Both the position numbers and the translations under genes were made by a program. DNA of 64,000 nucleotides from a virus. Taxonomy: Duplodnaviria; Heunggongvirae; Uroviricota; Caudoviricetes. Below, in pieces: positions 1-62,517 of this stretch; position 1 is the stretch's first letter; each line of letters opens with the position of its first letter. The stretch lies in the IMG/VR virus record IMGVR_UViG_3300022821_000011, positions 13,134-77,133 of that record; one strand, written 5' to 3'. Under the pieces are notes generated by a model. That model was not told the origin of the DNA. It searched no databases and saw only the letters and a program-made list of their open reading frames with translations.

Positions 1-5
1 AAAAA

Positions 6-82
6 TGGTGCCCCTGATGAGACTCGAACTCACAATCTTTTGCTTTTGAAACAAACGGGTCTGCCAGTTTCCCTACAAGGGC
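6..82 (-). tRNA. tRNA; anticodon loop TTCAAAA gives apparent anticodon CAA (Leu) but the variable arm is short (type I)
   Basis: Reverse complement folds as a cloverleaf. Acceptor GCCCTTG/CAGGGGC, T-arm GTGAG-TTCGAGT-CTCAT, anticodon stem TTTGT/GCAAA, 3' ACCA encoded. Confidence 0.6.
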
Positions 83-106
83 ATTAATTTAAGACCAAAA
101 CCAAAG

Positions 107-300
107 TTAATTCCAAACTTGATTCTTGACTTGAGTCATGACTTGATTCATGACTTGAATCTCGACTTGATTCAAGACTTGATTCAAGACTTGATTCCTT
201 ATTTGATTCCCGAGTTGACTTAAGACTTGATTCCAGACTTGATCACTGACTTGAGCCCAAACCTGAAACCTGACTTGATTTCTGACTTGATACTTTAAAT
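107..300. repeat. Array of about 16 degenerate 12-bp tandem repeats (GACTTGATTCNN)
   Basis: Direct reading shows a period-12 repeat. The minus strand encodes MKNLK-(xNQV)n, the 66-aa ORF 107..307. Confidence 0.8.
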
Positions 301-327
301 TTTTCATTTTATTTCATTTCTAAAAAA

Positions 328-402
328 TGGAGCGGGTGATGAGAGTCGAACTCACGACCATCTGATTGGCAACCAGAAGCTCTGCCACTGAGCTACACCC
401 GC
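328..402 (-). tRNA. tRNA-Gly (GCC)
   Basis: Acceptor GCGGGTG/CACCCGC plus CCA, D-arm TAGCTCAGTGGCAGAGC, anticodon loop TTGCCAA. Confidence 0.85.
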
Positions 403-785
403 ATTAAGCTATTAAATCTAGAAAAATAATAACCGGCCAAAATATAATAATATCTAAACTTACTACTACAGCTAAAGTCCAATCAAAAAAACTTCCTTTA
501 AAATCAATATATCCAGCTTTAATATCCTTATGTATAAATATAGCATGTTTACACCACACTATACAACCACACACCAAATAAATAATACCAGCTATCACCA
601 TTATTTTAAAACCTTTTTACCCTTAGCACTTAAGAAAAATCTATCACTTCCATCTATTATAAGTCGTTCTTTTTTTAACTTATCAATAAAATCGTTTGAC
701 ACAGTTGTTTCAACCATTCCATTCTGAATACGCTTTAACCAACGAATATGATCATCATTTAACATCGAGGTCCTCCTTTATTGAG

Positions 786-858
786 TGGTGGAGCTTGTCG
801 GAATCGAACCGACCACGCCAATCTTGCAAGGATCAACTGCTACCCATAGACAAGCCCC
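786..858 (-). tRNA. tRNA-Ala (UGC); G3:U70 pair present
   Basis: Anticodon loop CTTGCAA, T-arm GTCGG-TTCGATT-CCGAC, acceptor has a G3-T70 wobble. The D-arm is short. Confidence 0.7.
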
Positions 859-932
859 ATTAAACTCTCGGGGGAGATGATAGCTCTCCCCCTTCCTCAC
901 AAGACAGCTATCACACATCTTATGAGAGCAGA

Positions 933-1007
933 TGGTACTCGGTGAGAATTTTGAAATCCCGACCCTCTCGATGTAAGCGAGATGCTCTACCTCTGAGCTA
1001 ACCGAGC
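933..1007 (-). tRNA. tRNA-Val (UAC); unusual T-arm with a T53:T61 mismatch
   Basis: D-arm TAGCTCAGAGGTAGAGC, anticodon stem TCTCG/CGAGA, loop CTTACAT, CCA encoded. Confidence 0.75.
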
Positions 1008-1008
1008 G

Positions 1009-1533
1009 TTAATAAGTTGTTGACTTAACTGTTTTAATACAATCTGTCAAATAATATCCTATTTCTTTTGTTCCTTTAAGACCAACTTTAAGTTCTTCTT
1101 TCATTCCTGTAAACAATATCATTAATGAATTATTTTTAAATAGCTTATCAAAAGCTTTTGATAGACCTCTTAAAATTACAGCATTTTTCTTATAAACCTG
1201 AAAATCGGCATCAAGTTCTTCAAATCCATTTCCAAAAAATGATATTTTCAAATTTAATGTTTGACCAATTGCAGTTTTTGGCAAATTCCACCGGGGATTT
1301 AATACAGTAAGAGTCGTATATTGATCACCATTTCTTCGTGGAAAAATATTAAGATTAATACGGCTTCCGTCTTTCCAGGATGTGGAAATAACACATGACA
1401 TATCACTGCCTTTTTGGTGTCCAGTTATTCCCCAATCACCAGACGATGCACTATAAACTTTTTCGGCATTTGCTGCTGAAAAAGCTAACAAACACATAAC
1501 CGATGCTAATGCCAAACTCTTTAATTTATTCAT
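1009..1533 (-). CDS. Secreted hypothetical protein with an N-terminal signal peptide
   Basis: N-terminus MNKLKSLALASVMCLLAFSAANA is a signal peptide with an AxA cleavage site. Confidence 0.5.
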   Translation of the reverse strand: MNKLKSLALASVMCLLAFSAANAEKVYSASSGDWGITGHQKGSDMSCVISTSWKDGSRINLNIFPRRNGDQYTTLTVLNPRWNLPKTAIGQTLNLKISFFGNGFEELDADFQVYKKNAVILRGLSKAFDKLFKNNSLMILFTGMKEELKVGLKGTKEIGYYLTDCIKTVKSTTY

Positions 1534-1789
1534 GATTTAATATCCTTTATGTAATAGTGTACGCTCTATTTTTTCTAGCGCCTTCAATTTGATTAAGAAC
1601 AGATTCATCACACTTGCCATAGGTTTTTTGAACAACATATTTTATTGGGTCAGATTGTCTTGTTTCACCCAACATAACAGTAGCTCCTACAATAGCGCAG
1701 TGTTCTGGAATCCAAGAAATAGTATATTGATCTATTCCTCTAAGAAGACTACATTGAACATATTTATTATTTTCTTTCATAATAATCCT

Positions 1790-1818
1790 ATATTATATTA
1801 TTTCTGTGTTAATGTCAA
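1790..1818 (-). promoter_or_regulatory. Sigma70-like early promoter (TTGACA-17-TAATAT) upstream of ORF 1547..1780
   Basis: Plus-strand tgtcaa at 1813-1818, which is TTGACA on the minus strand. The -10 lies 17 nt downstream. Confidence 0.55.
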
Positions 1819-2516
1819 CTTTTATTTGCTAAAAACTTTTCATATGAAATTATTTCATTGCCCATCAGATTATCCATATCTAATTCAAACGTAGATAATT
1901 CATTTAAACATATAAATCTAGTATCTTCATGAAAATAATCAAAATCTACATGCCAATGACCAAAAATATGAATTTCTGGCTTGTGATGATAAAACATAGA
2001 ATTAAAAGCTTGTTGAGTTCTAGATGGAAAATCTAATTTATATCCACGATTTGCAGCCCATGCTAATTCATCTGATAAAAAATCAGGAGCTGTATGAGTG
2101 ATCATAACTCTTGGTTTTTCGTCAACAATTTTATCAATTAAAAGATCTAATTCTTTAATAGATAATTCTTCGTCTTCCCACCAATCATAACCTTCTGTTC
2201 TAAATGCTCGATCAATTGAAAGAGCGCCACCTATAAACATCATATCGTTTTCAATATGACCATCAGTTATACACTGAGAATGTCTAGAACACACAGATGG
2301 ATTATCATGATTTCCACGTATAAATCTATGATTTCCATTAACCATTATATCATATGGAGGATTAGGATGATAAAGATTTAAATTAAAAGCCTCTGCAATA
2401 TCTTCTCTTCTTTTAAATCCAACACCCATATCTCCCACTTGAATAGTATTAGAATATTGTTTAATTATATTTTTATAAGATCCAAATTTACCGTGAACGT
2501 CTCCAATAAGAATCAT
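1815..2516 (-). CDS. Calcineurin-like metallophosphoesterase
   Basis: Motifs GDVHG, GDMGVGF and GNHD. Confidence 0.7.
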   Translation of the reverse strand: MILIGDVHGKFGSYKNIIKQYSNTIQVGDMGVGFKRREDIAEAFNLNLYHPNPPYDIMVNGNHRFIRGNHDNPSVCSRHSQCITDGHIENDMMFIGGALSIDRAFRTEGYDWWEDEELSIKELDLLIDKIVDEKPRVMITHTAPDFLSDELAWAANRGYKLDFPSRTQQAFNSMFYHHKPEIHIFGHWHVDFDYFHEDTRFICLNELSTFELDMDNLMGNEIISYEKFLANKS

Positions 2517-3944
2517 TTATTTTTAAATCTTTCGTGTATTGCTGTTTGTTGTTCTATTGAAATAGAATTTTCAATATATTCCTGTATGTGATATGTATTT
2601 GTCGGGATTCTATAAATAGATGAAATTGACCTGTATGTTGACATGGAATTCAAATCACTGATTATATCATTTTGATAATTCATTAATCACCATATTCTTC
2701 TTTAATACATCCAATTATTCTATCAAAAGTTTCTTCGATAGCTTCTTCATCTACACCAAAATCATCTTCTAACATGTTCCAAATTTCTAGAAAATCATCT
2801 TCATGATCTTTCCAAAAATCATGTTTCTTATACCAATTTCTAAATGCTTTCATTATTTACTCACTTTAATTTTTTCATATGATATGAATATAAAAATTTT
2901 TGTTCTGCAGCCGATCCATTATCATTATTCCAATAATATAATTTAGTTTCTTTTGGAAGTTCATCAAACCATTTCCAAAAAGCTTTTATAAACTTATCGT
3001 CTTTATTTAGCTTTAAAAGAAAAGTGCTCATAATATCAAACAACCTCTTTGTTTTTATCGTTACACCATTTAATAGCAGATATCTGCTTATCGAAAACTC
3101 TTTTTCTAGTCCATAAGAAACATGAAAAACATGAGAAACTGATCCATAAAAAATTTTGCAAGGGACTCTACTATTAGCATATGAAACCAACTTCATATCA
3201 GCTCCAGACCCAACAGAAGTCCATTTTATTTCTTTATACATATGATTTTAAAATTGCTTCTACTGTTTTGTAATTTACATTTAAAATAGTTGATTGTGAA
3301 TATCTATTTTTAACAAAAGAATACGAATTACGAGAATCAAAAGTAATAACAATGTCCATCAGAATTACAAGAGAGTTTATTTTATTATTTTCTTGATCAA
3401 ATCGATTCTTATCAATTATTAAAACGTTGTCTAACCAGTTTCTCATCTTTCTTCTTCCCACTCACCAGCTGCTAAAAGCGCATTGCCAACTGGCCCCCAT
3501 TTTCTCGTATCACCGTCATATTTAAATAATAATTCATCTGATATTTCTCCTTCAATTAAACTATTATATTTTTTCATAGGCGCCAGACGGTGTGTTAGTC
3601 TCATAATATTTGTACCATCTTTTTTAAATTCAAAAGAATTTATGTAAGTTGATACCCACACATATTCTCTAAATTCATATGTTTCTGTGTTAATTAAACA
3701 CATATTTTTACGATCATATGGTGTTCCAATAACTATATCGTGAACATCTGTTATACTATTAAACACTCCAACAAATGAACGTTTTGGTGTATCTTGATCA
3801 AAGTCTGTGTACGTAAAAGCCATATACATAATAAAATACCTAATTAAAATAAAAAAATTCATTATTAATAAACGGTGTGCCACTCCGCGCGTCCAGAGGC
3901 CACTTTAAAGGAACATTAATTAGCGCGACGTCCTACCGAATTTT

Positions 3945-4020
3945 TGGTGCCCCCGGCTGGAATCGAACCAACGACCAAGCAGTTATGAGCTACCAGCTAC
4001 TACCACTGAGCTACAAGGGC
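3945..4020 (-). tRNA. tRNA-Met (CAU), or possibly Ile2/fMet
   Basis: Canonical numbering fits exactly. Anticodon stem GGTAG/CTGCT, loop CTCATAA, T-arm GTTGG-TTCGATT-CCAGC, CCA encoded. Confidence 0.8.
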
Positions 4021-4325
4021 TTTATTTCGATTTATTCGTTAGTTCCTTCAAGATAAGCCAAAAATTGATCTTTCCAGTCAAAATAATCATCAAATGACAT
4101 TGGAAACGAGGCATCTCCTCGAGATTTATTTTCTTCTATCCACATTTTTTCAAACGCGTCAACATTGTTTTGCAACTTAAGCATAAATTCTTTAAATTCC
4201 ATTATATTAATTCCTTCTCACTTTGATTTATTTGGTGGGCAGGGAAGCCGTGTAGTCACTTCCAGTCGGCAATCATTCCTCTCCGTTATACACTCGGAGC
4301 ATGCCCATAATATTTATCCTAAAAT

Positions 4326-4400
4326 TGGTGATCCGAGAGAATTTTGAAATCTCGTCACGCGGCTTAAAAGGCCGCTGCTCTGCCTCTGAGCTACCGGATC
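4326..4400 (-). tRNA. tRNA-Lys (UUU); T-arm with the same T53:T61 mismatch as tRNA-Val
   Basis: Acceptor GATCCGG/TCGGATC, anticodon stem GCGGC/GCCGC, loop CTTTTAA. Confidence 0.75.
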
Positions 4401-4810
4401 GTTGTTTTTATGTAATCTTTTTAAATTTTTCAAAAACAATAGTAGATGTTGCTTTTTCGCCTTCTCCATTTCGATATCTAGCTTTCCAAACATCTCCAGA
4501 CTCTTCACCCTGCCCATAAACTTCAATAAGAAGATGTGGAAAAGCTAATGATAAATCTAACAAATCTTTATCACAATCATACCATTTTGCTTCAGTAATT
4601 CTAAAATGTCCAGAACCATCAGCTATATTACAATGAAAACCATTTTCAAAAGTATATTGAATAGCCTTTTTTGCTTTAAATTCAAACCATTCGGCTTCAT
4701 CTTTGCCCTTAAGACCTGAAACACTAACTTCAAAATCGCTATAATAACCCACAATCAATTCCTTCCTAATTTAGAATATATAACATATCACATATTTATG
4801 GCAATGTCAA

Positions 4811-5335
4811 CTAATATTTTTTCTTATATTTCATAACATCATCTATATGAACTGGCATGTAATTAGTTTTTTCTACACATAAATTAATATGATTTAAAGA
4901 AAAACTTTCTTTTTCATGAATATGCCCATGCGCATTATATTCTACTTTTCTAAAAGAATCTGGCATGATTGGAACATGAGTAGCAAGAAAATTATGATCC
5001 TTGAACAATCTCCATACCACAATTTTACCAAATATATCATAAAGATTTTTATCTTTGCCATCATCATGGTTACCAAGAATTAATCTCTTTTTAAAAGGCA
5101 TGCTTTTTAACTGTTTAAGAGATGATTCTGATTTTTCTTTCGAAAAATATACATCACCAAGATGGTAAAGAGTATCACCAGCTTTTACATTATCTGTTAT
5201 ATTATCTAATATGCGCTGATTCATATGACTAAGAGAATCAAAACCAGGACGAATCAAATTATCATTTTCATCCACAAATTTCAAAATATTCTCGTGGCCA
5301 AAATGAGTATCTGATATAAACCATATATTTCTCAT
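4811..5335 (-). CDS. Calcineurin-like metallophosphoesterase, second paralogue
   Basis: Motifs ISDTHFGH, GDV and GNHD. Confidence 0.7.
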   Translation of the reverse strand: MRNIWFISDTHFGHENILKFVDENDNLIRPGFDSLSHMNQRILDNITDNVKAGDTLYHLGDVYFSKEKSESSLKQLKSMPFKKRLILGNHDDGKDKNLYDIFGKIVVWRLFKDHNFLATHVPIMPDSFRKVEYNAHGHIHEKESFSLNHINLCVEKTNYMPVHIDDVMKYKKKY

Positions 5336-5529
5336 TTAATCTCTCACATATAAACCATAAATTTCAACATTAAGATGCTCATCACCATCTTCTAAAATCT
5401 TCTGCTTTTCATTACTAGCATTCATATAATTTCTATGAATGCTAAAAATTCTCATGGGATTCAAGCGATAAACGACAAACATCATTTCTTTATCTGTATT
5501 TTCTATTAACATTATTCCTTAAAGCTTTC

Positions 5530-5815
5530 ATTTTAAGTAAATCTGGAATTGATTCTTGACTTGCCAACTGACTTGATCCCAGACTTGATCGCCGACTTGA
5601 TCATTGACTTGATTCCAGACTTGAACTCTTAAACTTTTCATATCAAAGCATTCCTGACTTGATTCCTGGCTTGAGTCCTGACTTGATTCCTGACTTGATT
5701 TTCGACTTGAGTCCAGACTTGAGTCACGACTTGATTCCAAACTTGATTTTCGACTTGATCGCTGACTTGATAATTGACTTGATAATTGGTTTGATCATTG
5801 ATTAGATTCTTTAAA
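5530..5815. repeat. Second array of 12-bp GACTTGATTCNN tandem repeats, paralogous to 107..300
   Basis: Same repeat unit. Minus-strand ORFs 5528..5740 and 5638..5823 encode MKNLKNL-(xxQV)n. Confidence 0.8.
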
Positions 5816-5900
5816 TTTTTCATACTAAATAATTACAAACTTGATTACCGACTTGAGTCCAAACTTGATCTCTAATGTTATTCTTTACACTTTTAATAAA

Positions 5901-5935
5901 TTACTCGATGATATAAAATATATAACATCGAGTAA
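5901..5935. promoter_or_regulatory. Perfect 10-bp inverted repeat (TTACTCGATG...CATCGAGTAA) overlapping the -10 of the promoter at 5917..5945
   Basis: Read directly; the spacer is 15 nt. Confidence 0.6.
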
Positions 5936-5945
5936 CTAATGTCAA
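5917..5945 (-). promoter_or_regulatory. Sigma70-like promoter TTGACA-17-TATATT, with a T4-late-like TATAAATA immediately upstream
   Basis: Plus-strand tgtcaa at 5940-5945 and tatttata at 5946-5953. Confidence 0.5.
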
Positions 5946-5954
5946 TATTTATAT

Positions 5955-6033
5955 TGGAGAGCCAGGTGGGGCTCGAACCCACGTAAGACAGAGATTAAGA
6001 GTCTCTCGCTACAACCGACTCAGCTACTGGCCC
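5955..6033 (-). tRNA. tRNA; probable anticodon CUU (Lys), with a 7-nt variable region
   Basis: Acceptor GGGCCAG/CTGGCTC, anticodon stem AGAGA/TCTCT, loop CTCTTAA, T-arm GTGGG-TTCGAGC-CCCAC, CCA encoded. Confidence 0.55.
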
Positions 6034-6038
6034 ATTTA

Positions 6039-6551
6039 TTATTTTCCGCTATTTCCATTACCGCCACCGCCATTACTAGACCCGCCGCCCTGGCCATTAT
6101 TCCCACCACCATTGCCGGTGCCTGGACCAGATCCGCCATTATTACCGCCGCCGTTGCCAGGATTACCAGCATTTCCATTACCATTACCAGGACCCGAGCC
6201 GCCGTTTCCATTTCCATTTCCGTTATCTGATCCAGATCCGCCGTTTCCATTTCCGTTATCTGATCCAGATCCGCTGTTTCCATTTCCGTTATCTGATCCA
6301 GATCCACCATGATCCGATCCACCGTTTCCGTTACCTGATCCACCGTTTCCGTTACCTGATCCGCCATGACCTGATCCACCATGACCATCACCATGACCTG
6401 ATCCACCATGACCTGATCCGCCATGACCCGATCCGCCATGACCTGATCCGCCATGACCTGATCCACCATGACCATCACCATGACCTGATCCACCATCTGA
6501 TCGAGAAGAAGAACCAAGGCCAATATTTCCGCCAACACCTTCACATCTCAA
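6039..6551 (-). CDS. Gly/His/Asn-rich low-complexity repeat protein (GGSGHGG repeats). It is in-frame with an upstream signal-peptide ORF (6561..6674) across a single TAG codon
   Basis: Translation from ATG 6674 gives MKNIIIMSAIILASSTSLAVASDYCDRLSTETGAFHIQ, then stop, then FELRCEGVGGNIG... in the same frame. Confidence 0.5.
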   Translation of the reverse strand: MRCEGVGGNIGLGSSSRSDGGSGHGDGHGGSGHGGSGHGGSGHGGSGHGGSGHGDGHGGSGHGGSGNGNGGSGNGNGGSDHGGSGSDNGNGNSGSGSDNGNGNGGSGSDNGNGNGNGGSGPGNGNGNAGNPGNGGGNNGGSGPGTGNGGGNNGQGGGSSNGGGGNGNSGK

Positions 6552-7521
6552 TTCAAACTATTGAATATGAAAAGCGCCTGTTTCAGTTGATAGCCTATCG
6601 CAATAATCACTAGCAACTGCTAAAGAAGTAGAAGAAGCCAAAATAATAGCTGACATTATAATAATATTTTTCATTTGTTTCACTTTCATTTGTTTAATTT
6701 TCACTTGTTTAATTTTAATTAATCGACGAAATCGCTAAGATTTGCTTTCCAATTATCAATCTTTCCATATTCATTAATATTCATAATAACATAATCGCCA
6801 TATCCAGGCCCACCTGGTGACATAGAACTAATAACATATGAATCATCCAATCTTTTAACTGGTACATTAATATCATCAAGAAGAGTATATACGCCAGCAT
6901 CACACACTTTATAATGTATCTTAGCTGTTTTTCCAGCTTCCCAATTTGTAATAATACCAGTTTCCAAATCGATGGTAGGTTCCCAGCAATCATTACGCCG
7001 ACATGGAATAAGAGAACCGTCTGTATCTTCTACTCCATTTACTTTACCATCCTCCCAATATCTAACTCCACACGAAGCTTTAAGATATTTCACATCTTTA
7101 ACTACGGTTTCTGTTATTTCAATTTTCATTATCTACAATCCATTCTATAAGTTGTTGTTTAGCTTCTTTGGTCATTGTAAAATTTAAAAATTCAGTTTGA
7201 GAATCTAATCGAATGTATAACTCACCATCATCTTCTTTTTCAATACTAAAGTCTGTAGAACTTCTAGGTCCATATACTATAAATTCTTTTTTACTTTTAA
7301 TAATATCCATATAATCTCATTTCATGTATTTTCGATGATCCACTTTTTAAGTTCTGAAAGTTCTCTTGGAGACAAATCAATAAGTTCTTCAGAACCTCCA
7401 ATATTAATTGTAACAAGTAAATTACCATCGTCACACATAAATAATTCTAAATCATCTCGAATATGCTTTTTAATAATAATTCTTTTGTTATTTTTAATAA
7501 TATCCATTTTATTCTCCAAAT

Positions 7522-7617: not shown

Positions 7618-7711
7618 TGGTACTCCCACCAGGATTCGAACCTGGGACGCTCTCTAATCTGGAGACGATGCTGAATATAAGTCAGGTGTTTTACCGCTAA
7701 ACTATGGGAGT
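7618..7711 (-). tRNA. Type II tRNA with a long variable arm; apparent anticodon UAU from loop CTTATAT, so identity is unclear (Leu, Tyr or Ser class)
   Basis: Acceptor ACTCCCA/TGGGAGT plus ACCA, T-arm CCAGG-TTCGAAT-CCTGG, 94 nt. Confidence 0.6.
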
Positions 7712-10099: not shown

Positions 10100-10128
10100 A
10101 TGTATTACTCCTAATGTTGATAAATTAG

Positions 10129-10157
10129 ATACTATTCTATTCTATCAGAAATGTCAA
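10129..10157 (-). promoter_or_regulatory. Sigma70-like promoter (TTGACA, weak -10) between tRNA-Arg and the clpA-like gene
   Basis: Plus-strand tgtcaa at 10152-10157. Confidence 0.4.
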
Positions 10158-10165
10158 CATAAAAA

Positions 10166-10242
10166 TGGAGCTTCTAGCAGGATTCGAACCCGCGACACTT
10201 AGTTTCGAAAACTAATGCTCTGTCCAGCTGAGCTATAGAAGC
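10166..10242 (-). tRNA. tRNA-Arg (UCG)
   Basis: Acceptor GCTTCTA/TAGAAGC, D-arm TAGCTCAGCTGGACAGAGC, anticodon stem TTAGT/ACTAA, loop TTTCGAA. Confidence 0.8.
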
Positions 10243-10253
10243 ATAATTATTTT

Positions 10254-10317
10254 GGAAGTCCTTGAAAGCCACAGTTTTACCCATTTGGAACTATTTATGC
10301 TTTCAAGGACTTCAATG
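10254..10317. repeat. Conserved hairpin element, copy 1 (15-bp stem GAAGTCCTTGAAAGC with a 29-nt loop), abutting the 3' end of tRNA-Ser
   Basis: Near-identical copies occur at 11453..11510, 14900..14963 and 20983..21046. Each lies immediately 3' of a minus-strand tRNA or tRNA-like gene. Confidence 0.8.
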
Positions 10318-10404
10318 CGGAAGATGCGGGATTCGAACCCACGAAACTATTTGAAGTTTGACAGTTTAGCAAACTGCTGATTTAAGCCACTCATCCAATC
10401 TTCC
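10318..10404 (-). tRNA. tRNA-Ser (GCU), type II; CCA not encoded
   Basis: Acceptor GGAAGAT/ATCTTCC, anticodon stem GCAGT/ACTGT, loop TTGCTAA, T-arm GTGGG-TTCGAAT-CCCGC. Confidence 0.75.
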
Positions 10405-11452
10405 AATTTATTTTTATTTATTAAGATCTAAGGTTGCTGGAAAACCCTGCACTTCAAATTTAGTTATTTTACCTTGTTCTCTAGATTTATCTGATATTTC
10501 ATCAAACCAGGCAAACAAAATATAGTCTATATTATTTGGATCAATTTCAATTTCAAGTATAACTCTCATAGTGTATCCTAACTATAATTAATATATAACT
10601 TTTGATAATATTTTAACACTCCATCATTTTGGCTTATTAAATTTTTTACCATTTCTGGCAGCATTCGTTCAACTTTTTCATATTCGGTTATTTCTACTCC
10701 ACGACTTAAGAATATTCCAAAAATTTCTTCAAATTCTTTAATTGCTCTTTCTTCTGGAGTATTGATTGTTTCTAAATTAGAATAATCATCAGAATTTATA
10801 TAATCGCCAGGCTTTGGATTGGCTCTAGTAACTAAAACAGCTTTAGTCATACCTTCTCCAGTAGCATAATAATCTGAAAGTAAAAAATATATTTTATCCA
10901 TGAACCAAAAACCTCACTGCTATTTCTATTTTACCAAATATTTCTTCATAATTTGTACGAATCAATGATGTACTTATTGTTCCAAACTTAAAGTTATACA
11001 CTTTCCTACGGACATCATATTCAACATTTCCAATAACTACACTAGTTGATTTCATTATAAATCCTCCTTAATGCTATGAGATATTAAATCAACAACATTA
11101 TAAGAAATATATAAAAAATTAAAAATTGATTCTTCTTTTGATTCGATACTAATGTTAGTTGTATAAGATAAACAATATATATCTATCTTATTAAAAATAT
11201 CTCTACTAAGTAAACGCATTAATCACTCCTGCATAAATGTGATCAGTAATGTCATAATTCACATATATTTTTCCAGTGTGTGTATTATGTATTTGCGAAT
11301 TAAAAGAAACTTTTAAAAGTATTTCAGATTCAAAATGATAGTAAATAATATCAGATGTGTTTTTCATATTAAAACCTCAATTCTCTTGATATCTTAAGAC
11401 AAATTTCTTGATAAAAATCACGACACTTTGTTATATCAATTTTATTCATTTA

Positions 11453-28060: not shown

Positions 28061-29398
28061 TTATAGCTTAGCCCTTTCTCTAACTTCTTCAAATGTGGTT
28101 TCATTATACATATAACCATGTGAATATCTTTTCTTAAAAGAGCTATTTGTAATAAGACCAGCCTTAGATGCTTTTGAGCGATCTGTGATTGGATCTTTCT
28201 TTACATCAAACCAAACAACACCATTATACGATGCAGAACTAGTTTTCATTGCAAAGCTTAGATCATCTCTATTTACTTTTTGAAGCAAACCACCGCCCAT
28301 ACCAAAGGCCCAATTTTCTACACTAATTCCTCTATCTATAAGCTCTTTCACACATTCACGAATAGTATCAATATTGCATCCATCGCCCTGAATCGCACGA
28401 ACGCAGTCTTCAAAAACGATAAAACCTTTATTGTTAACAGTATAATTATCAAACGATTTAAGAATTCTTTCAGAAACCTGGCCAATCATCGATGAAATTG
28501 GACTGCCACTATCTGGTCTAATCACAAGAGTTCCACCAGAATTACGAACTTTTTCTTTCAACTTATTACCCCACCCTTCGGTGATTGCTTCCCAGATGTT
28601 ATAACTATCTGATACGCAAGAATAAAGAGCGTTGGTTTTTGCATAAGTATCTAAAAAATGTTCAAACATTTCATATTCACGGTCCTTGCCCCAACAAGTT
28701 ACAGTCGAATGCTCACTAGCAGGAATAGAAAAACCAGCCATATCTTCACCATAATATACTTTGGCAGCTTCTAAAGCTTCGACTGTATCGGTTCCCATAA
28801 AGTTAATCAAATGAGCCATGCCGCCCAATGCAGCTGATTCGCCAGAAGTCGCTCCCCTACCGCCAAAGTCATGTAACTTAAACGCGATCTGGCCATCTGG
28901 ATCATCGCACGATTCTTGCAAACCAGCATATATAATCTTTTTTACTTCACGTGACACAGTCGCTACAGTTGATGGATACCATATTGCTCTATGGAGCGCA
29001 GTTTCAATAAAGGCTGGAAGCCATGGAAACCTATCATCTGCGTTTCTTACTTCTAGAAGAGGTGTTCCCAATGGAACTACGGTGCCTTCGTCGATAGCAG
29101 AAATTTGAATAGGAAGAAAACCATCAAACTCATTAACGATTATGTCCCATCCTTCTCTATCAAAAGGAAGGCCATGAGCAGTAATTCTCTTTTCTGCATA
29201 ATCAATATCTTCTTTTACAATTGGATCTAATAGATATTCTTTTAGATATGATTGCAGGCCAAAGTAAACCATAGAATCAAACTTATTTGATTTTCTTCCT
29301 TCGAGATATGAACTCATATACTTGATATTAGGATCAATAAGTTTTGAATGAGAAAATTTGTAACTGTCTGTAGATAAAATAAAATTTCTTTTTAGCAC
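28061..29398 (-). CDS. nadV: Nicotinamide phosphoribosyltransferase (NadV/Nampt)
   Basis: MLKRNFILSTDSYKFSHSKL... NAPRTase family; 445 aa. Confidence 0.8.
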   Translation of the reverse strand: MLKRNFILSTDSYKFSHSKLIDPNIKYMSSYLEGRKSNKFDSMVYFGLQSYLKEYLLDPIVKEDIDYAEKRITAHGLPFDREGWDIIVNEFDGFLPIQISAIDEGTVVPLGTPLLEVRNADDRFPWLPAFIETALHRAIWYPSTVATVSREVKKIIYAGLQESCDDPDGQIAFKLHDFGGRGATSGESAALGGMAHLINFMGTDTVEALEAAKVYYGEDMAGFSIPASEHSTVTCWGKDREYEMFEHFLDTYAKTNALYSCVSDSYNIWEAITEGWGNKLKEKVRNSGGTLVIRPDSGSPISSMIGQVSERILKSFDNYTVNNKGFIVFEDCVRAIQGDGCNIDTIRECVKELIDRGISVENWAFGMGGGLLQKVNRDDLSFAMKTSSASYNGVVWFDVKKDPITDRSKASKAGLITNSSFKKRYSHGYMYNETTFEEVRERAKL

Positions 29399-29731
29399 TG
29401 TAATAACTCCTATTACGTTTATGTTTAAATTTTTACCACCACCAATGAATTAAAACATCTCCAGTGATACTGCATTTTTTAAAATAATCAGAAATAATTG
29501 GATATTCTTCAGACAATTCTGCCTCATCCCAACTAAAATAATAATAATCATTTCCAAGTTCATGATCTTGCCATAATCTTTTAACTTCTTCTTCAACTTC
29601 TACTGGACAATCCGTCCACTGAGCATCAAAAACAAGTTTTGCACTAAATGCAGATGGTATATTACTACTATCTACTTCCTGCCATTTGTTAGTTTTATGT
29701 ACGTGGGCAGTAGTTCTTCCTGAATATTTTA

Positions 29732-30811
29732 TCATAATTTCACCATATCATCTATTATATCAAAGTGATCTTCAAAAATAACACCTCTATCGAGATCATT
29801 AAGAGGAATCCATTTCGCTTTTGCAGCATCATCAGAACCTTTTACTTTTGGAAGTTCTTGCATATCCGTCAAATGAATATAATGAGCATGCGTTATAGTT
29901 CTTCCACGCTGAGATCTATATGGATCATCATACACTTTAACTTGTTTAATTGATCCACGAAGAACGGCCGCAGGAACTTTAATTTTTGTTTCTTCTCTTA
30001 GCTCTCTAATCATAGCATCTTCAATAGTTTCAAATTGATTGATGAAACCACCAGGGATTGCTAATTGACCAAGACCAGGCATCGCGCCGCGTTCAATCAT
30101 AAGAATATGACCAGATTGAACCACTACTGCATCTACAGTATTAAAAGTTGGAGGGAACGGTGAATGAGACCAACTTTTCTTATATGAAATCAAATGCTCA
30201 TTTTCAGCTCTTATATATTCAAAGTCTTTTGGGTTTTCTTCAGCCCAGCTTTCAAGATATTCAACTACTGCTATTGGCATCTCAGCAGCTCTTCTTGGAA
30301 ACATAAGAGTCCAAGGATTAAACAAATCTTCTCTAACAGTTGTAGCATCAAGAACTACATATTGTTCAACATTTTCACTTCCCCATTGAGGAAATAAATT
30401 AAGATAAAAAGATGAATGATCTTTTGCGTGACCAATCAATCCAATTTTTGTGGGTCCGGCTTTCCATTTTTTATTAATGATATGATTGACTTGACCTTGA
30501 ATACTAGAAACCCACTTATCTAAATTATAAGTATAATCTTCTTGATATGCAAAATCTATAGCAGAACTATAAGCAGCAACACGATCAAATAAATCAGTGC
30601 CTCTAGTTATTTCCATCATAGAATCAAGAATCATTTGTTTTCTTTCTTGACTAGTCCAAGGGTTACGTAATGATCTAGGCTGGTTGTGCGAGCCCAATAC
30701 TATAATAATTTTTTCGGAAAGTTCTAGTGCTCTTCTGATAACATTTAAATGTCCATTGTGCACTGGCTGAAATCGGCCTATAAAGACCAGATAATCGTAT
30801 TTGTATGACAT
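29732..30811 (-). CDS. nadM: Bifunctional NMN adenylyltransferase (NadM-type) plus Nudix ADP-ribose pyrophosphatase
   Basis: FIGRFQPVHNGHL nucleotidyltransferase motif and Nudix box IRELREETKIKV. A T4-late-like TATAAATA sits 38 nt upstream, with SD AAGGGAG. Confidence 0.8.
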   Translation of the reverse strand: MSYKYDYLVFIGRFQPVHNGHLNVIRRALELSEKIIIVLGSHNQPRSLRNPWTSQERKQMILDSMMEITRGTDLFDRVAAYSSAIDFAYQEDYTYNLDKWVSSIQGQVNHIINKKWKAGPTKIGLIGHAKDHSSFYLNLFPQWGSENVEQYVVLDATTVREDLFNPWTLMFPRRAAEMPIAVVEYLESWAEENPKDFEYIRAENEHLISYKKSWSHSPFPPTFNTVDAVVVQSGHILMIERGAMPGLGQLAIPGGFINQFETIEDAMIRELREETKIKVPAAVLRGSIKQVKVYDDPYRSQRGRTITHAHYIHLTDMQELPKVKGSDDAAKAKWIPLNDLDRGVIFEDHFDIIDDMVKL

Positions 30812-49924: not shown

Positions 49925-50629
49925 TTAGGCTGAAGCTTTAGAAGTACTTGTATTTTTATTTTTCACAAGTTCTTTTCTATCAGAATCGCTATATATTGCG
50001 TCCATCTTTGCTGCGGCAGATCCTACTGAAGCAGAAGAAGCAGCAAAAGCCGAATTTCTAGAAGCAAGATCACTAAATGTACCTCTCAAATTAGACTTAT
50101 TAAATGTAGCAGAATAATCGCCTTTAAAACCATAATTCATACCAGCAGCAAAGCCATCTTGATCAGCACCAAGATAAATCATAAGCCAATCATCATTTTC
50201 TTTCTGAGAAATAAGCTTCTTAATATCATCAGCCTTAAATTCCTTAGAATGATTTTCATGGCCATCTGTTATTACGACAAAAGCTACAGCTTCATTCTTT
50301 TCAAGCTTTACTTTCTTATCAATAAACTTAATTGATTCGCCAATAGCATCAAACAAGTTTGTCATACCATTTGGTTGATATTCATCAACATGTCTCTTAG
50401 CTTCTGTTGGTGAAACACATTCACAGACATTTTTGATCTTATCACCTTCAAAGAATGTAATAGATACTGATGTGCTTTCTTGGTCAACCGATGTCAAATA
50501 CTCATTAAGAGCTTCTACTGTTTGATTTCTATCAGCCATCATAGATCCAGACTCATCTACAACTAAATGAGCATATAGTTTACCAGTGTTCTTTTTAATT
50601 AATTTTGCCATTATTTTTTCCTTATTCAA
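49925..50629 (-). CDS. vWA-domain protein (MIDAS VVDESGSM ... NGMTNLFDAIG)
   Basis: DxSxS ... T ... D MIDAS residues. Confidence 0.65.
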   Translation of the reverse strand: MNKEKIMAKLIKKNTGKLYAHLVVDESGSMMADRNQTVEALNEYLTSVDQESTSVSITFFEGDKIKNVCECVSPTEAKRHVDEYQPNGMTNLFDAIGESIKFIDKKVKLEKNEAVAFVVITDGHENHSKEFKADDIKKLISQKENDDWLMIYLGADQDGFAAGMNYGFKGDYSATFNKSNLRGTFSDLASRNSAFAASSASVGSAAAKMDAIYSDSDRKELVKNKNTSTSKASA

Positions 50630-51830
50630 AAAATGTTTCTAGTGTGTTTTGTTTTTCATTCCAATTATCATGAGACTTATTCAAATTACTTTGAAATAAG
50701 TAATCTGTCTCGATGAATTCACGATTACCATCAATCACATTCTTTATTTCTGTTGCCATATCCTTTGATGTTTTATAATGAACATTTTGGCAAATGTGAT
50801 TAACCGATTTAGTTGGATTTAATAGCTCAAAATCAGCTGGTAAACCCATAATAGTCATTGCTTCTCTATATGTTATATAGCGATCTTCATATGGATGAGT
50901 CAGAACATTTGGATAATGCCCAACAAAAGCTCCAATATAATCTTTTGGTATAATAGTTCCCCTTCTCATAATATTACCGCCGGCTGCTAATTTATGAAAT
51001 TTTCTATTACATTTTGGAACTTCTCTATCATATCCATTTTTAGCCATCCATTCTCCAACAACATCATATGTATAACCGGCTCTTTCGATTAAAGACTCTA
51101 TATCATTTCCTCTAACATTCTTTGTTTCAAGAACATCAAAAAACTCACGATGAGTTATGCCACCATGTATTTCTTCTAACATATATCTATAATATGGATC
51201 ATCTTTTGATGGTGTTTTAGAGTTGATTGGCTCCATCTGAAAATTGCTAGTAACACCAGTAATAACATCTTCAATTTTATCATGGGGTCTATTAAAATAT
51301 TGAAGCAGTGGTGTTTTTTCTCCAAATTCTTTTTTGTTCCAAAAGAAATAAAACGATCTTTTTCTGAATTGAGGAACACCATGTAATATATTTTTAGTTA
51401 AATATAAACTCATTCCATAACCATTCTTAAGAGAAATATCTCTTAATTTATCAAGCATGAATTTACCAATCTTCCCTGCTAGCGCTGGGGCATTCTCACC
51501 CCAGAACACTAGTGGCTTTACCTCGCCTAAAACATAATTAGCAGTCTTTTCCATCCATTGATTATTTTGATTATCTTCTCCAGCTTTATGATGATATTGA
51601 CTTAGACCAGCGCATGGACATACTGAAGAAACAACATCAATTGGATAAGGAAAAGAGCCACCTTTATCAAGAAGATAATAAGGAACTTCATTATTATAAT
51701 AATTTAATAAATGAGATTCATTTGCTTCAAATGGTGAATAACTTAAAATATACTCAGGTCTATTTCCCCACACTTCATCAGAAGCTAGAACTTCTCCTCC
51801 TATAAGTGGTATTATACTAGCGTGTTTCAT
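50622..51830 (-). CDS. C5-cytosine-DNA-methyltransferase-like protein
   Basis: Motif I-like IPLIGGEVLA (compare LFAGLGGFRLA), motif IV-like SVCPCAGLSQ (compare GFPCQAFS), motif VI-like WGENAPAL (compare ENV). Confidence 0.45.
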   Translation of the reverse strand: MKHASIIPLIGGEVLASDEVWGNRPEYILSYSPFEANESHLLNYYNNEVPYYLLDKGGSFPYPIDVVSSVCPCAGLSQYHHKAGEDNQNNQWMEKTANYVLGEVKPLVFWGENAPALAGKIGKFMLDKLRDISLKNGYGMSLYLTKNILHGVPQFRKRSFYFFWNKKEFGEKTPLLQYFNRPHDKIEDVITGVTSNFQMEPINSKTPSKDDPYYRYMLEEIHGGITHREFFDVLETKNVRGNDIESLIERAGYTYDVVGEWMAKNGYDREVPKCNRKFHKLAAGGNIMRRGTIIPKDYIGAFVGHYPNVLTHPYEDRYITYREAMTIMGLPADFELLNPTKSVNHICQNVHYKTSKDMATEIKNVIDGNREFIETDYLFQSNLNKSHDNWNEKQNTLETFFE

Positions 51831-52924
51831 ACAAATAAATCCTCTAATGTAGATCTTTCAATTCCATTATATTCTAACCCCTGCCAATATGGATAATATT
51901 CTCTAGATATATGAACAGATTTTGGTTTTTCCATTACTTTAAAATCCATCTCTCCTTCTGCATTATAAAATTCAGGAGTTATCCATTCTTTAATTTTGAT
52001 ATCTGTTCCTTTAGTGCTAATACACAATCTCTCTTTAAAATATTTACGTGCGGTATCCCTGTTTTCCCACGAGCCATAATATGATGTCCCATTGTAATGG
52101 CCGCTTTTTGGGATATTTCGTCGTGTATTTTCAATAGGAAGTAATTCATAGATGGCTTTAGTTTCATATTTCATCTCACTTACTTGTTTTACATAACGAT
52201 CTACTAAATTATTTACAGCAGCTTTCATATCATCAAATCTACATATATGATGTCTTATATCGATATTACCAAAATAAAATTCTACATGATTTATTCCAGG
52301 CTCAATAAAGGACTCAAGTCCCATTTCAAGGGCGCCATGGAGTGTTTTATAAGGAACTGAATTTATATTCCATCCTGGCCTATACATGCATATAGCATGG
52401 CTATCTCCAACAACTAACTTATCCCATGGACCTTTTGGTTTAATAACAATAGCTCTTTTTTGCATTTCTCTTAAATTGGCGACATCGACTTCAAGAAATT
52501 CTTTTATAATTCCTTCTTTGCCGTGCTTGTTTTCGAAATGGTTAAGCTTATTTTCAAGCATTGTAGCATAATCTGGCATATTATAATCAATGGAATAAAC
52601 TTCTCCTTTAAACCATGATATATTTCTAATATTATATGCGTGTGGAAATTCTCTAACACCACCAAAGAAATTCAAATCAGTAGAATCAGCTTTACGGTCG
52701 TTTCCATGATACATGTATAATCTATCATATTTATTAAAGTCTTCGGTTTTGTTTTCTTCTTTAGCCTTCTCTCCTTGCACGCTAGGTCTTGAAAGACTAA
52801 CTGTTATATCATCACAATGTCTACTTTGTTTAAGCAAGTCTGCATATATAACTCCTTGTGCAGCTCTATGACTTGCTAACTGAAACGATATTGGAATAAA
52901 TGGAGCGGCAATAACTGATTTCAT
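51827..52924 (-). CDS. Hypothetical 365-aa protein in the modification cluster
   Basis: No recognisable motifs. Confidence 0.3.
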   Translation of the reverse strand: MKSVIAAPFIPISFQLASHRAAQGVIYADLLKQSRHCDDITVSLSRPSVQGEKAKEENKTEDFNKYDRLYMYHGNDRKADSTDLNFFGGVREFPHAYNIRNISWFKGEVYSIDYNMPDYATMLENKLNHFENKHGKEGIIKEFLEVDVANLREMQKRAIVIKPKGPWDKLVVGDSHAICMYRPGWNINSVPYKTLHGALEMGLESFIEPGINHVEFYFGNIDIRHHICRFDDMKAAVNNLVDRYVKQVSEMKYETKAIYELLPIENTRRNIPKSGHYNGTSYYGSWENRDTARKYFKERLCISTKGTDIKIKEWITPEFYNAEGEMDFKVMEKPKSVHISREYYPYWQGLEYNGIERSTLEDLFV

Positions 52925-52933
52925 ATCAAATCC

Positions 52934-54016
52934 TTATACAAAAAAACTATCTAATGTGGACCCACTCTTTTTTTCTTCTATTTGACTAGCAATATCAAAA
53001 AATGAATCAAAGGTTAATGGAAGCATTCTTTTTTCTTGAGCTTTTGGATTATCTTTAATTCCTAAAAAGCAATTAAATTGACAGAAGGTTATTTCAGTTC
53101 CAAATGTAGTTAATTTACCACCACGTTCTAAATTATTTTGAAACCAAAATAAGTCAGAATCTTTTAAATCAAAAAACTCATACTGATGTTTCTTAACAGA
53201 CACAATAAATTTTTCCATTATAGAATTATTTGAAAACTTAACATCTGGAAAAACGAACTCAAGACCTCTTTTTGCTCCTGGACCAACTAAACAATAATCT
53301 TCATCTTCATCTATATGAGAAAGATCTATACTTCTAGAAAAATTACAGGGAGGATGATAAGAAAAATAAGGACCTATTCCACGATGCTGTAAAAGCCAAT
53401 CACAGACATCTTTAAGTTTAGATTCTGGATTTTGAACCACATCACTCATTCCCTGTCGATCTAGTTCTTCTATCCATCTTATCATATGAGATAATTTAAA
53501 TGGAGCTTCTTCATTTTGCTCTTGAATTCTAACAAAATTTCTTGCTGCTGTTTGAAGACTTGTTTGGAGCTGAGTAGCTCCCCACACTTTAGTCTTAAAG
53601 CGATTTTCATCTAAATTTTTATTGATAAAATCATAATATTCTTCATGTTTAGAATATTCATCAAAATTTATAATATTTGAATAATCAGAAGAATCTGTAG
53701 CCACTAAAGTTAGTGTTGGCATCCCAACAAATTTAACAGCCATAGCATTTAAAATTTTGTTTTTCATAGAAGTTTCTTGATTAAAAACAAAATTTTCTAA
53801 CCAAAAAACTTCAGCATGTTTAGATCTATTTGGATTCCAATATGAAACAGCTGGTCTCATAGCAGATCCAAATAAATCTGAAACATCATACTCTTCTAAT
53901 CTATTTGATTCTCTTAGATATTCTCGTTTAAAGAAATCGATAACCCAATCTCTAAAATAAGAAAAATTATCAGCATTTTTAAAAGAATTTAATTCTGATA
54001 AGTTAAATGTATTCAT
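52934..54016 (-). CDS. Hypothetical 360-aa protein in the modification cluster
   Basis: No recognisable motifs. Confidence 0.3.
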   Translation of the reverse strand: MNTFNLSELNSFKNADNFSYFRDWVIDFFKREYLRESNRLEEYDVSDLFGSAMRPAVSYWNPNRSKHAEVFWLENFVFNQETSMKNKILNAMAVKFVGMPTLTLVATDSSDYSNIINFDEYSKHEEYYDFINKNLDENRFKTKVWGATQLQTSLQTAARNFVRIQEQNEEAPFKLSHMIRWIEELDRQGMSDVVQNPESKLKDVCDWLLQHRGIGPYFSYHPPCNFSRSIDLSHIDEDEDYCLVGPGAKRGLEFVFPDVKFSNNSIMEKFIVSVKKHQYEFFDLKDSDLFWFQNNLERGGKLTTFGTEITFCQFNCFLGIKDNPKAQEKRMLPLTFDSFFDIASQIEEKKSGSTLDSFFV

Positions 54017-62129: not shown

Positions 62130-62500
62130 CTTGATCAAAATAAATTATTAGACGAACCCAAACTAAATTTATTGGAGTATTCTGTTGCTAGGCTACTCCA
62201 GGCCCCAGTACTCTAGTTTCTAATCCACAAAGGGATCAGGCAGCAAGAGCCAAAGGTGCAAAGTTATCGTTTGCGTTTAGTTTCTAGCCAGTCGGCCAAC
62301 CAGTTAACTCCAGTTACTCATTACGCACCCAATCGATCCCAGTTCATCCCCATCAAAAGAAGTGCGACCTTTGTGCACCAAGTCTTTTCAAACACCAATA
62401 GAATATTCTAGCACTTCTTTTGGTGGAGATGGGCGGATTCGAACCGCCGTGTTAAGTGTTTTTTGTTTCCTTCAACGTCAACATATTATTTATATCACAT
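62130..62500 (-). ncRNA. ssrA: Two-piece (circularly permuted) tmRNA gene. The acceptor piece (T-arm GGCGG-TTCGAAT-CCGCC, CATCTCC, ACCA) lies upstream of the coding piece (5' GGGGATGAACTGGGATCGA...). Tag reading frame 62274..62236 is GCA AAC GAT AAC TTT GCA CCT TTG GCT CTT GCT GCC TGA, giving ANDNFAPLALAA
   Basis: The 5' GGGGATG pairs with the 3' CATCTCC. A D-loop analogue GGGATCGA is present. The tag ends ALAA followed by a stop. A 10-bp hairpin AAAGAAGTGC...GCACTTCTTT lies between the pieces. The promoter is at 62489..62517. Confidence 0.65.
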
Positions 62501-62517
62501 TATTTGTTTGGTGTCAA
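62489..62517 (-). promoter_or_regulatory. Sigma70-like promoter TTGACA-17-TATAAA driving the tmRNA
   Basis: Plus-strand tgtcaa at 62512-62517. Confidence 0.5.

Follow-up and report, generated by a model that had tools for sequence, protein, structure and literature searches.

Do short tandem repeats in a phage genome act as DNA sites that happen to be open for translation, or are they genes? The question is raised by two loci in a 64,000-nucleotide stretch of DNA (hereafter the window) from a tailed phage of the Caudoviricetes, positions 13,134 to 77,133 of IMG/VR record IMGVR_UViG_3300022821_000011. At window positions 107..300 and 5530..5870, 12-bp units, GACTTGATTCNN, follow one another in register, and the minus strand reads them as the tetrapeptide x-[N/D]-Q-V (NNG-AAT-CAA-GTC for x-N-Q-V). 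A first-pass annotation had offered two readings, repeat mini-proteins such as decoys or low-complexity binders, and iteron-like sites such as a replication origin. Judged from the sequence, these arrays are small protein-coding genes, and the best overall explanation, which we consider probable, is that they are multi-copy genes for hypervariable helical mini-proteins that represent a detached form of the repeat module of DUF6745 (PF20530) proteins.

The arrays as protein-coding genes

The arrays lie where they had first been placed: Tandem Repeats Finder (TRF) calls period-12 arrays at 117..243/127..291, 5570..5624, 5650..5783, 5741..5801 and 5834..5868, and GACTTGATTC occurs 23 times in the window at one mismatch or less, against 5.75 ± 2.4 times in shuffled sequences, with 20 of the 23 copies inside the two loci. 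The gene boundaries needed revision. Three minus-strand open reading frames (ORFs) had been described as starting with MKNLK; two of them stand (mini-genes A and B1, Table 1), but the third, 5528..5740, starts at TTG in another frame of the upstream array, and the real gene there is the shorter mini-gene B2. The second locus (cluster B), taken at first for a single array, actually holds two genes in different frames and a third, start-less remnant. The Q-V dipeptide (CAAGTC) of the proposed xNQV unit is near-invariant, but the second residue is not fixed as N, being mostly N and also D, T, Y, S, I, F or A. QVWNQVLSQLGNQIR is an example peptide of these mini-proteins.

Arrays of this kind were sought as four GACTTG hexamers at 12-bp spacing, and at least 120 IMG/VR contigs matched. 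For a test of coding, 53 loci with diverse spacers were picked from other viral contigs by the hexamers alone. By its make-up the unit stays open in three frames, and its variable bases can create stops (TAG or TGA from the common TGG) in the Q-V frame only. In that frame, none of 1,369 inter-hexamer spacers contains a stop, where positional base frequencies predict about 126 (P ~1e-57; 53 arrays). The only stops, ten in number, are confined to three monotonous arrays, two of these from giant-virus bins. The window taken by itself is only suggestive of stop avoidance (2.7 stops expected, P = 0.06).

The array loci also have the layout of genes. They yield 205 distinct mini-ORFs with a median length of 61 aa and 10 units, an N-terminal consensus M-K-S-V-K-[N/K/D]-Q-V, and non-repeat tails of mostly 4-8 aa; the stop is in phase with the repeat in only five of the 205. 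Up to ten mini-ORFs occur per locus, and their commonest junction is a 4-nt ATGA overlap, found 31 times in other viral contigs and at all eight tandem junctions of the window phage, with the reading phase shifting at each gene junction. Tetrad position 1 is W in 24% and R in 23% of cases, position 2 is D in 32% and N in 25%, and position 4 is V in 93% and otherwise I or L; position 3 is Q, as set by the search pattern. Taken together, stop avoidance, ATG starts, tails, ATGA overlaps and the translation of the same repeats inside DUF6745 ORFs (see below) show that the arrays are coding. The mini-protein reading of the first-pass annotation is thereby supported, with a frame unbroken in relatives, gene-like starts and ends, and repeats that are translated within long DUF6745 proteins.

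Little in the window points to DNA sites as the primary nature of the arrays. GC skew stays negative throughout the 64 kb, with no inflection, and no replication initiator gene was seen beside the arrays, whose neighbours are tRNAs, phosphoesterases and small ORFs. A search of Rfam found tRNAs only, plus a sub-threshold chance match to mir-434 on the array. With Q-V-frame stops avoided as well, the iteron or origin reading is not supported as the main one. Linkage to tRNA genes, which had been pointed out at both loci, is real here (tRNA-Gly and tRNA-Leu flank mini-gene A, and tRNA-Lys precedes cluster B) but is rejected as a general property, with 30 of 40 related loci lacking a tRNA.

Homology to DUF6745 proteins

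An exhaustive HMMER search (phmmer) with the 66-aa protein of mini-gene A against 1.84 billion representative proteins gave 462 matches at E <= 1e-3 (best 4.5e-36). The top matches fall in the repeat region of proteins of 350-550 aa, and the first 150 are, with few exceptions, 280-600 aa long. DUF6745 is present in 45 of the 57 matches that were scanned, in a fused architecture where an N-terminal domain (LTxEQ..RDxWL..GLS..SP) is followed by (x-[D/N/A]-Q-V)n and then by DUF6745. Fused proteins also occur in bacterial and archaeal genomes, and a protein of a Mycobacterium abscessus prophage has the same architecture with x-D-Q-L units. The family is widespread, and its repeats are homologous to the DUF6745 repeat module. 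The idea of decoys or low-complexity binders was a guess, and the evidence ties the mini-proteins instead to DUF6745 and to a 115-aa protein encoded beside it.

Other searches returned little. Pfam has no match for the three window mini-proteins, PHROGs and Pfam together give only weak or spurious matches for mini-proteins, and PADLOC gives none for them; in PADLOC the repeat region weakly matches a type I specificity model. When the region was compared with GenBank phages by megablast and blastn, the outcome was a tRNA match or nothing, and low-complexity filters probably hide the arrays; tblastn with the 66-aa protein gave a single match, and a word-indexed protein search found no homologues in a collection that does not hold the exact mini-protein sequences. 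Profile hidden Markov models of the N- and C-terminal domains, built from seven DUF6745 proteins, have no match in the 64-kb window, and no literature was found that mentions DUF6745 or the repeat strings. Gene callers miss most mini-genes, which are thus largely absent from protein databases; mini-gene A is annotated as a gene in JGI contigs.

The tetrad has a wider distribution than DUF6745. In bacterial and archaeal genomes of many phyla (bacterial loci L227-L346, for example L231 and L251), near-perfect [S/T]DQV repeats of 5-11 copies form the linker before Fic-like_C (PF21247) in SLFN_AlbA_2/HATPase_c_4 and Fic proteins, often with CAA-GTA or CAA-GTC codons even in GC-rich genomes. By this distribution, the tetrad is a motif of helical linkers in general, and the hypervariable form rich in W and R is the one tied to DUF6745.

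Fused and split cassettes

Among the loci selected for arrays, fused DUF6745 genes hold 5-82 repeat units, and separate mini-ORFs are missing from their vicinity. Genes that consist of the N-terminal domain and DUF6745 without repeats (~290-325 aa) are accompanied at about 20 loci by tandem mini-ORFs on the same strand, and the distance between such a gene and its array is 0-2,900 bp, mostly below 1.4 kb. Since this first sample had been chosen for arrays, the test was repeated from the DUF6745 side, with 80 loci that were drawn from 215 confirmed relatives using two peptide motifs of the DUF6745 C-terminus. Same-strand Q-V mini-ORFs lie within 6 kb, mostly within 1 kb, at 38 of 66 repeat-less loci versus 1 of 14 fused loci (Fisher P = 7e-4), and the single fused locus with mini-ORFs is probably misclassified. 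The fused and the split state are nearly mutually exclusive.

A gene of about 115 aa adjoins the DUF6745 gene in 73 of the 80 loci, and the two differ in strand only once. Its product has invariant AQG, SETxHxH and D.H motifs, commonly a tail RRQREYxPEG, and matches phrog_27831; it belongs to no Pfam family. The pair also occurs in the cultured cyanophage MaMV-DC of Microcystis (L429, record positions 161142..162676), where ORF162L (115-aa-like) and ORF161L (repeat-less DUF6745) lie between the genes for DNA polymerase and uracil-DNA glycosylase. The core pair of DUF6745 and the 115-aa protein is older than the repeat module, which may be absent, fused or split. IMG/VR holds at least 215 DUF6745 loci and at least 120 array loci; among 50,697 GenBank records, the cassette was found in four distinct phages.

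Other tetrads are in use at some loci, among them loci that count as negative for Q-V mini-ORFs. Free x-[N/D]-A-T mini-ORFs, with no Q-V, surround a repeat-less DUF6745 gene in L402 (5508..7617), and fused repeats read xSAV in L356 and L412 and xDNL in L373.

For the window phage, the link to DUF6745 predicted a repeat-less gene outside the window. Walking out on the population contig ENA k141_847635 (80.7 kb; locus L347, where a position x corresponds to window coordinate 10602 - x) led to this gene, its 115-aa neighbour and eight further mini-genes in tandem (Table 1). The phage thus has at least 11 intact mini-genes with 129 units, and the window clusters are outlying members of the set; the B1 tail RNQVRNALI is common to paralogues of the main cluster. 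The 321-aa DUF6745 protein is present on 16 contigs, the longest of 150 kb. As a separate observation, the third mini-gene of the main cluster differs between L347 and L349, and the L349 version resembles a recombinant of L347 paralogues 3 and 8. L349 ends inside the cluster, and the difference is either real recombination or a collapse of short-read assembly.

Table 1. Features of the arrays, their cassette and their surroundings (window coordinates unless L347 is named)
Feature	Coordinates	Strand	Description
Mini-gene A	107..307	-	66 aa, MKNLKYQV...; MKNLK followed by 15 x-[N/D/..]-Q-V tetrads
Mini-gene B1	5638..5823	-	61 aa, MKNLKNLI...RNQVRNALI
Mini-gene B2	5528..5641	-	37 aa, MKSLRVQVWNQV...QIYLK, starts MKSLRVQV
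Remnant mini-ORF	5820..5897	-	25 codons; IKSVKNNIRDQVWTQVGNQV..., IKSVKNNIRDQVWTQVGNQVCNYLV; ATT replaces ATG
Repeat-less DUF6745 gene	L347 14129..15094	arrays' strand	321 aa; 3.6 kb downstream of mini-gene A, past the left edge of the window
115-aa gene (phrog_27831-like)	L347 15116..15463	arrays' strand	~4.5-4.9 kb past the left edge
Eight tandem mini-genes	L347 16819..18254	arrays' strand	~6.2-7.7 kb past the left edge; ATGA at all 7 junctions
Sigma-70-like promoter candidate	5917..5945	-	TTGACA-17-TATATT, directly upstream of cluster B; consensus match, 11/12
10-bp inverted repeat	5901..5935	.	TTACTCGATG / CATCGAGTAA, straddling the -10 element; read from sequence
tRNA-Gly(gcc)	328..402	-	20 nt upstream of mini-gene A start
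tRNA-Leu	6..82	-
tRNA-Ile(tat)	7618..7711	-	94 nt, unusually long
Gly/His/Asn-rich ORF	6039..6551	-	170 aa; GSGHG and GSGNGNG units
Permuted tmRNA	62145..62513	-	tag ANDNFAPLALAA

Predicted structure and mode of evolution

AlphaFold2 predicts the 66-aa mini-protein as one helix spanning residues 2-65, with a predicted local distance difference test (pLDDT) score of 89.8, from a single sequence and hence with a bias towards helix. For the fused protein P0061, modelled from a 60-sequence alignment, the mean pLDDT is 86.6 and the predicted template modelling (pTM) score 0.81. Confidence is high in its N- and C-terminal domains and lower in the repeats, which are modelled as two consecutive helices (76-102 and 105-141); we read these as a predicted helical hairpin arm on a globular body.

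Over the 129 units of the window phage, variation is concentrated in the first two codons. Entropy at codon positions 1, 2 and 3 is 1.57, 1.36 and 1.16 bits for codon 1 (x), 1.22, 1.55 and 0.07 bits for codon 2 (N/D), 0, 0 and 0.18 bits for codon 3 (CAA), and 0.78, 0.20 and 0.65 bits for codon 4 (GTC). As DNA, the unit is a contiguous 7-bp constant core (TCAAGTC) with a 5-bp variable block. From this profile, amino-acid-changing differences at residues 1-2 exceed synonymous ones many-fold.

Within the population, the arrays are quiet. Contigs are 99.97-100% identical, and array changes amount to one 24-bp deletion and one single-nucleotide polymorphism: B1 has lost two units in frame in one contig, the remnant reads TGG for TGT in one contig, and mini-gene A is without difference in all eight contigs compared. 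Such near-constancy gives no sign of ongoing hypermutation, and contigs so alike carry little further information. More distant relatives, with a flanking phosphoesterase of 33-65% identity, lack arrays at the orthologous position and thus give no frame information there.

A diversity-generating retroelement was considered as a source of the variation and rejected. A Pfam scan of 20 window ORFs revealed no reverse transcriptase, and the adenine-specific variation of such elements is absent, with the CAA adenines constant in 129/129 and 126/129 units and all four bases varying at positions 1-5; the arrays are also stable between population contigs.

Comparison with known systems

The closest counterparts are the fused DUF6745 proteins themselves, such as gp38 of the Mycobacterium prophage prophiGD102-1. 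They share the x-[D/N/A]-Q-V/L unit, with E-values as low as 4.5e-36; both forms occur in the same phage lineages, and the repeats are predicted to be helical in both. Unlike them, the window genes lack the N-terminal and DUF6745 domains and are free-standing, multi-copy and placed beside a repeat-less DUF6745 gene.

Gp54 of mycobacteriophage Tweety, with Che8 gp57 and PMC gp51, is an (A-A-x-x)n tetrapeptide-repeat protein that acts in counter-defence against Phrann gp29/gp30, and escape mutants tune its repeat number (PMC9262239). Its pattern of variation was described by Pham et al. and read as selection for variation (PMC2884959). Like the window genes, it is an early-region phage gene with a 12-bp unit and two invariant plus two variable residues, its variation falls in codon positions 1-2 with invariant third positions, and its copy number changes by whole units (PMC2884959, PMC9262239). 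It differs in having its invariant residues, A-A, at positions 1-2, where the window genes have Q-V at positions 3-4. It is also a single gene, and its repeats stand between unique N- and C-terminal domains that do not visibly resemble DUF6745; the window proteins lack such flanking domains.

Further systems resemble the arrays in part. In type IC restriction specificity subunits (EcoR124I versus EcoR124II), TAEL tetrapeptide repeats lie within the conserved central region. They too are helical 4-aa repeats encoded by 12 bp, with a copy number that sets the distance between two domains; in contrast to the present repeats, they come as 2-3 identical copies without hypervariable positions inside a DNA-recognition subunit, which makes this an analogy only. 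Iterons are likewise tandem direct repeats, homogeneous in one replicon and different between replicons, but the present repeats are ORF-constrained and form several clusters of separately initiated genes with no adjacent initiator or GC-skew shift. Pentapeptide-repeat proteins (Qnr, MfpA; PF00805) share a short period with a conserved D/N and a hydrophobic position, and are set apart by a period of five residues, not four, and a beta-helix in place of the predicted alpha-helix; nor is there a Pfam match.

The preferred explanation

In this explanation, each mini-gene encodes 37-66 aa, made up almost wholly of x-[N/D]-Q-V tetrads and predicted to form a single long alpha-helix. The window phage has the split arrangement, with a repeat-less DUF6745 protein (321 aa), its 115-aa partner and the mini-genes on one strand in an early/tRNA region. 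The mini-proteins would work with the DUF6745/115-aa core and supply in trans the helical arm that fused proteins hold in cis. Q-V would serve as the scaffold. A fast-diversifying binding surface would come from the two hypervariable residues, of which the first is W or R about half the time. The arrays would expand, contract and homogenise through slippage and through recombination between units and paralogues. As to function, the likeness to Tweety gp54 allows the speculation that the module serves early host takeover or counter-defence.

Several points weigh against this explanation. The translation of the mini-genes is read from the sequence, no obvious Shine-Dalgarno sequences precede them, and the first ORF of cluster B lacks its ATG. 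The single-sequence bias of AlphaFold2 weakens the predicted helix of the mini-protein. Physical interaction between mini-proteins and DUF6745 is inferred only from fusion, fission and adjacency; 28 of 66 repeat-less DUF6745 loci have no Q-V mini-ORF within 6 kb, the MaMV-DC pair has no repeat ORF within 3 kb, and the window clusters lie 3.6 and 9 kb from their DUF6745 gene and do not adjoin it. Codon choice is a further difficulty. In the array-independent loci (L350-L427), GTC makes up 87% of array Val codons versus 27% in neighbouring genes, and CAA 93% versus 42%. In the window phage, GTC is used in 113 of 129 array units (88%) versus 6% of the Val codons of long ORFs, and AGG accounts for six of eight array Arg codons versus 6% of Arg codons genome-wide. 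This excess of CAAGTC is not accounted for by a protein model and hints at a nucleotide-level role. It might stem from concerted evolution together with recent horizontal spread, from a nucleotide-level role as such, or from a codon-specific effect. Stop-codon logic in the other frames was also tried and dropped, as reasoning on it fails to explain CAA over CAG or GTC over GTA and GTG.

A bolder version of the preferred explanation, which we regard as unlikely though worth stating, treats the cassette as a split combinatorial specificity system. About a dozen diversifying mini-proteins would plug in trans into the DUF6745/115-aa core and retarget it like swapped specificity subunits, and a dedicated nucleotide-level mechanism would homogenise the scaffold codons or diversify the variable ones, hence the conservation of CAAGTC.

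Alternative explanations

Could the DNA repeat matter more than its translation? The arrays might be mainly cis-acting DNA or RNA elements, such as iteron-like sites, perhaps for DUF6745 or the 115-aa protein, with a frame that is secondary or dual. The conserved hexamer speaks for such sites: one hexamer prevails within each genome, and in the array-independent sample it is CAAGTC in 30 of 44 loci though the DUF6745 proteins are only ~40% identical; GTC and CAA stand far above local codon usage, and the 7-bp core of the DNA unit is contiguous. Yet the hexamer is not universal. Q-V is written CAAGTT in L193 (36/36 units), CAAGTA in L195 (38/39 units), CAAGTG in L165, CAGGTT in L180 and CAGGTC in L139, and GC-rich genomes lean to CAGGTC or CAGGTG. 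Array-wide synonymous hexamers thus differ by lineage, which means that the dipeptide is constant and the DNA motif is not, and in some lineages other tetrads (xSAV, xDNL, xNAT, xDQL) substitute altogether. Comparing frame with DNA periodicity, as the first-pass annotation had suggested, therefore gives a mixed answer: the frame is kept with synonymous drift of the hexamer, but CAAGTC is over-conserved relative to codon usage. Against cis-acting sites stand also the 0 of 1,369 spacers with a Q-V-frame stop where ~126 were expected, the defined starts, tails and ATGA couplings with a phase change at each junction, and the necessary translation of the repeats in fused DUF6745 proteins. There is neither a GC-skew inflection nor an initiator gene seen nearby, and the 12-bp spacing is off the DNA helical repeat. 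On balance we think this account improbable.

It is also rather improbable that the mini-ORFs are precursor or substrate peptides akin to ribosomally synthesised and post-translationally modified peptides (RiPPs), modified by DUF6745, the 115-aa protein or both, in parallel with fused and split borosin systems. Such a role would suit the multiple small genes in tandem, whose N-terminus is conserved and whose body is hypervariable, beside two conserved proteins, and the invariant His, Asp and Glu of the 115-aa protein (SETGHxH, DTHE) could bind metal. The fused repeats, however, lie between two domains that are modelled as a single body (pTM 0.81), where known autocatalytic RiPP fusions are terminal. 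Pfam, PADLOC and PHROGs revealed no known maturase family, and the inspected loci showed neither a protease nor an exporter.

We give still less credence to mini-proteins that act alone, either mimicking or poisoning host xDQV-linker proteins (SLFN_AlbA_2/HATPase_c_4, or Fic with Fic-like_C) or serving as membrane-active peptides rich in W and R. [ST]DQV repeats are common interdomain linkers across bacterial phyla, and tetrad position 1 is W or R in 47% of units. But the host linkers are near-perfect S/T-D-Q-V without W or R, the mini-proteins have no hydrophobic segment or signal peptide, and the strand-specific tie to repeat-less DUF6745 and the exclusivity with the fused state would be left unexplained.

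That the arrays are decaying, non-functional minisatellite leftovers of a former fused DUF6745 gene is hardly credible: one window copy lacks its ATG, gene callers skip many copies and copy number differs between contigs, but stop avoidance, starts and tails are kept over hundreds of copies while DUF6745 proteins are only ~40% identical, and amino-acid-changing differences greatly outnumber synonymous ones, contrary to what neutral decay would give.

Gene arrangement and expression signals

In cluster B, the B2 ATG overlaps the B1 stop as ATGA, and the TGA of the remnant overlaps the B1 ATG. The KSVKN of the remnant agrees with the family consensus MKSVK[NKD]QV, and it is probably a pseudogene or a gene with a non-AUG start. 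The ATGA overlaps probably couple translation inside clusters, as far as the junction sequences indicate. The promoter candidate upstream of cluster B is the best promoter-like match in window 1..6600, and the inverted repeat across its -10 element is a possible operator. Mini-gene A fills the 245-bp spacer between tRNA-Gly and tRNA-Leu, ending 24 nt from the latter, and the promoter scan of window 1..6600 found no promoter-like site belonging to it; it is therefore probably co-transcribed with the tRNAs.

Other features of the window

The window is AT-rich (32% GC) and phage-like, with all 26 tRNA genes and a permuted transfer-messenger RNA (tmRNA) on its minus strand, and encodes a family B DNA polymerase, a gp44-like clamp loader, a DnaB-like helicase, a ClpB-like ATPase and genes for the salvage of nicotinamide adenine dinucleotide (NAD). 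Auxiliary genes at 28061..30811 and 50622..54016 include NAMPT and an NMNAT-NUDIX fusion for NAD salvage. The same stretches hold a C5-cytosine-methylase-like protein and a protein with a 5-hydroxymethyldeoxyuridine (5-hmdU) DNA kinase helical domain, which suggests that the phage DNA may contain modified bases.

An insertion or intron may account for the length of tRNA-Ile(tat). The Gly/His/Asn-rich ORF has DNA periods of 15, 21 and 33, and its product is 170 aa long in most population contigs and 141 aa in one. The tmRNA tag recurs in L081, an otherwise unrelated IMG/VR contig (tmRNA at 10108..10508), which has two Q-V mini-ORFs ~200 bp upstream of the tmRNA. The common tag suggests that the two share a group of hosts. 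A permuted tmRNA is a typical feature of Alphaproteobacteria.

Significance

No description of the cassette was found in the literature. The arrays are the visible end of a three-part cassette of a 115-aa protein, a DUF6745 protein and tetrapeptide-repeat mini-proteins, which is common in uncultured phages and almost missing from cultured ones. Its fused and split forms predict a concrete protein-protein interaction. Two of every four residues show an extreme surplus of variants that change the amino acid, which points to an arms race between phage and host. Tweety gp54, the one phage tetrapeptide-repeat protein tested so far, works in counter-defence.

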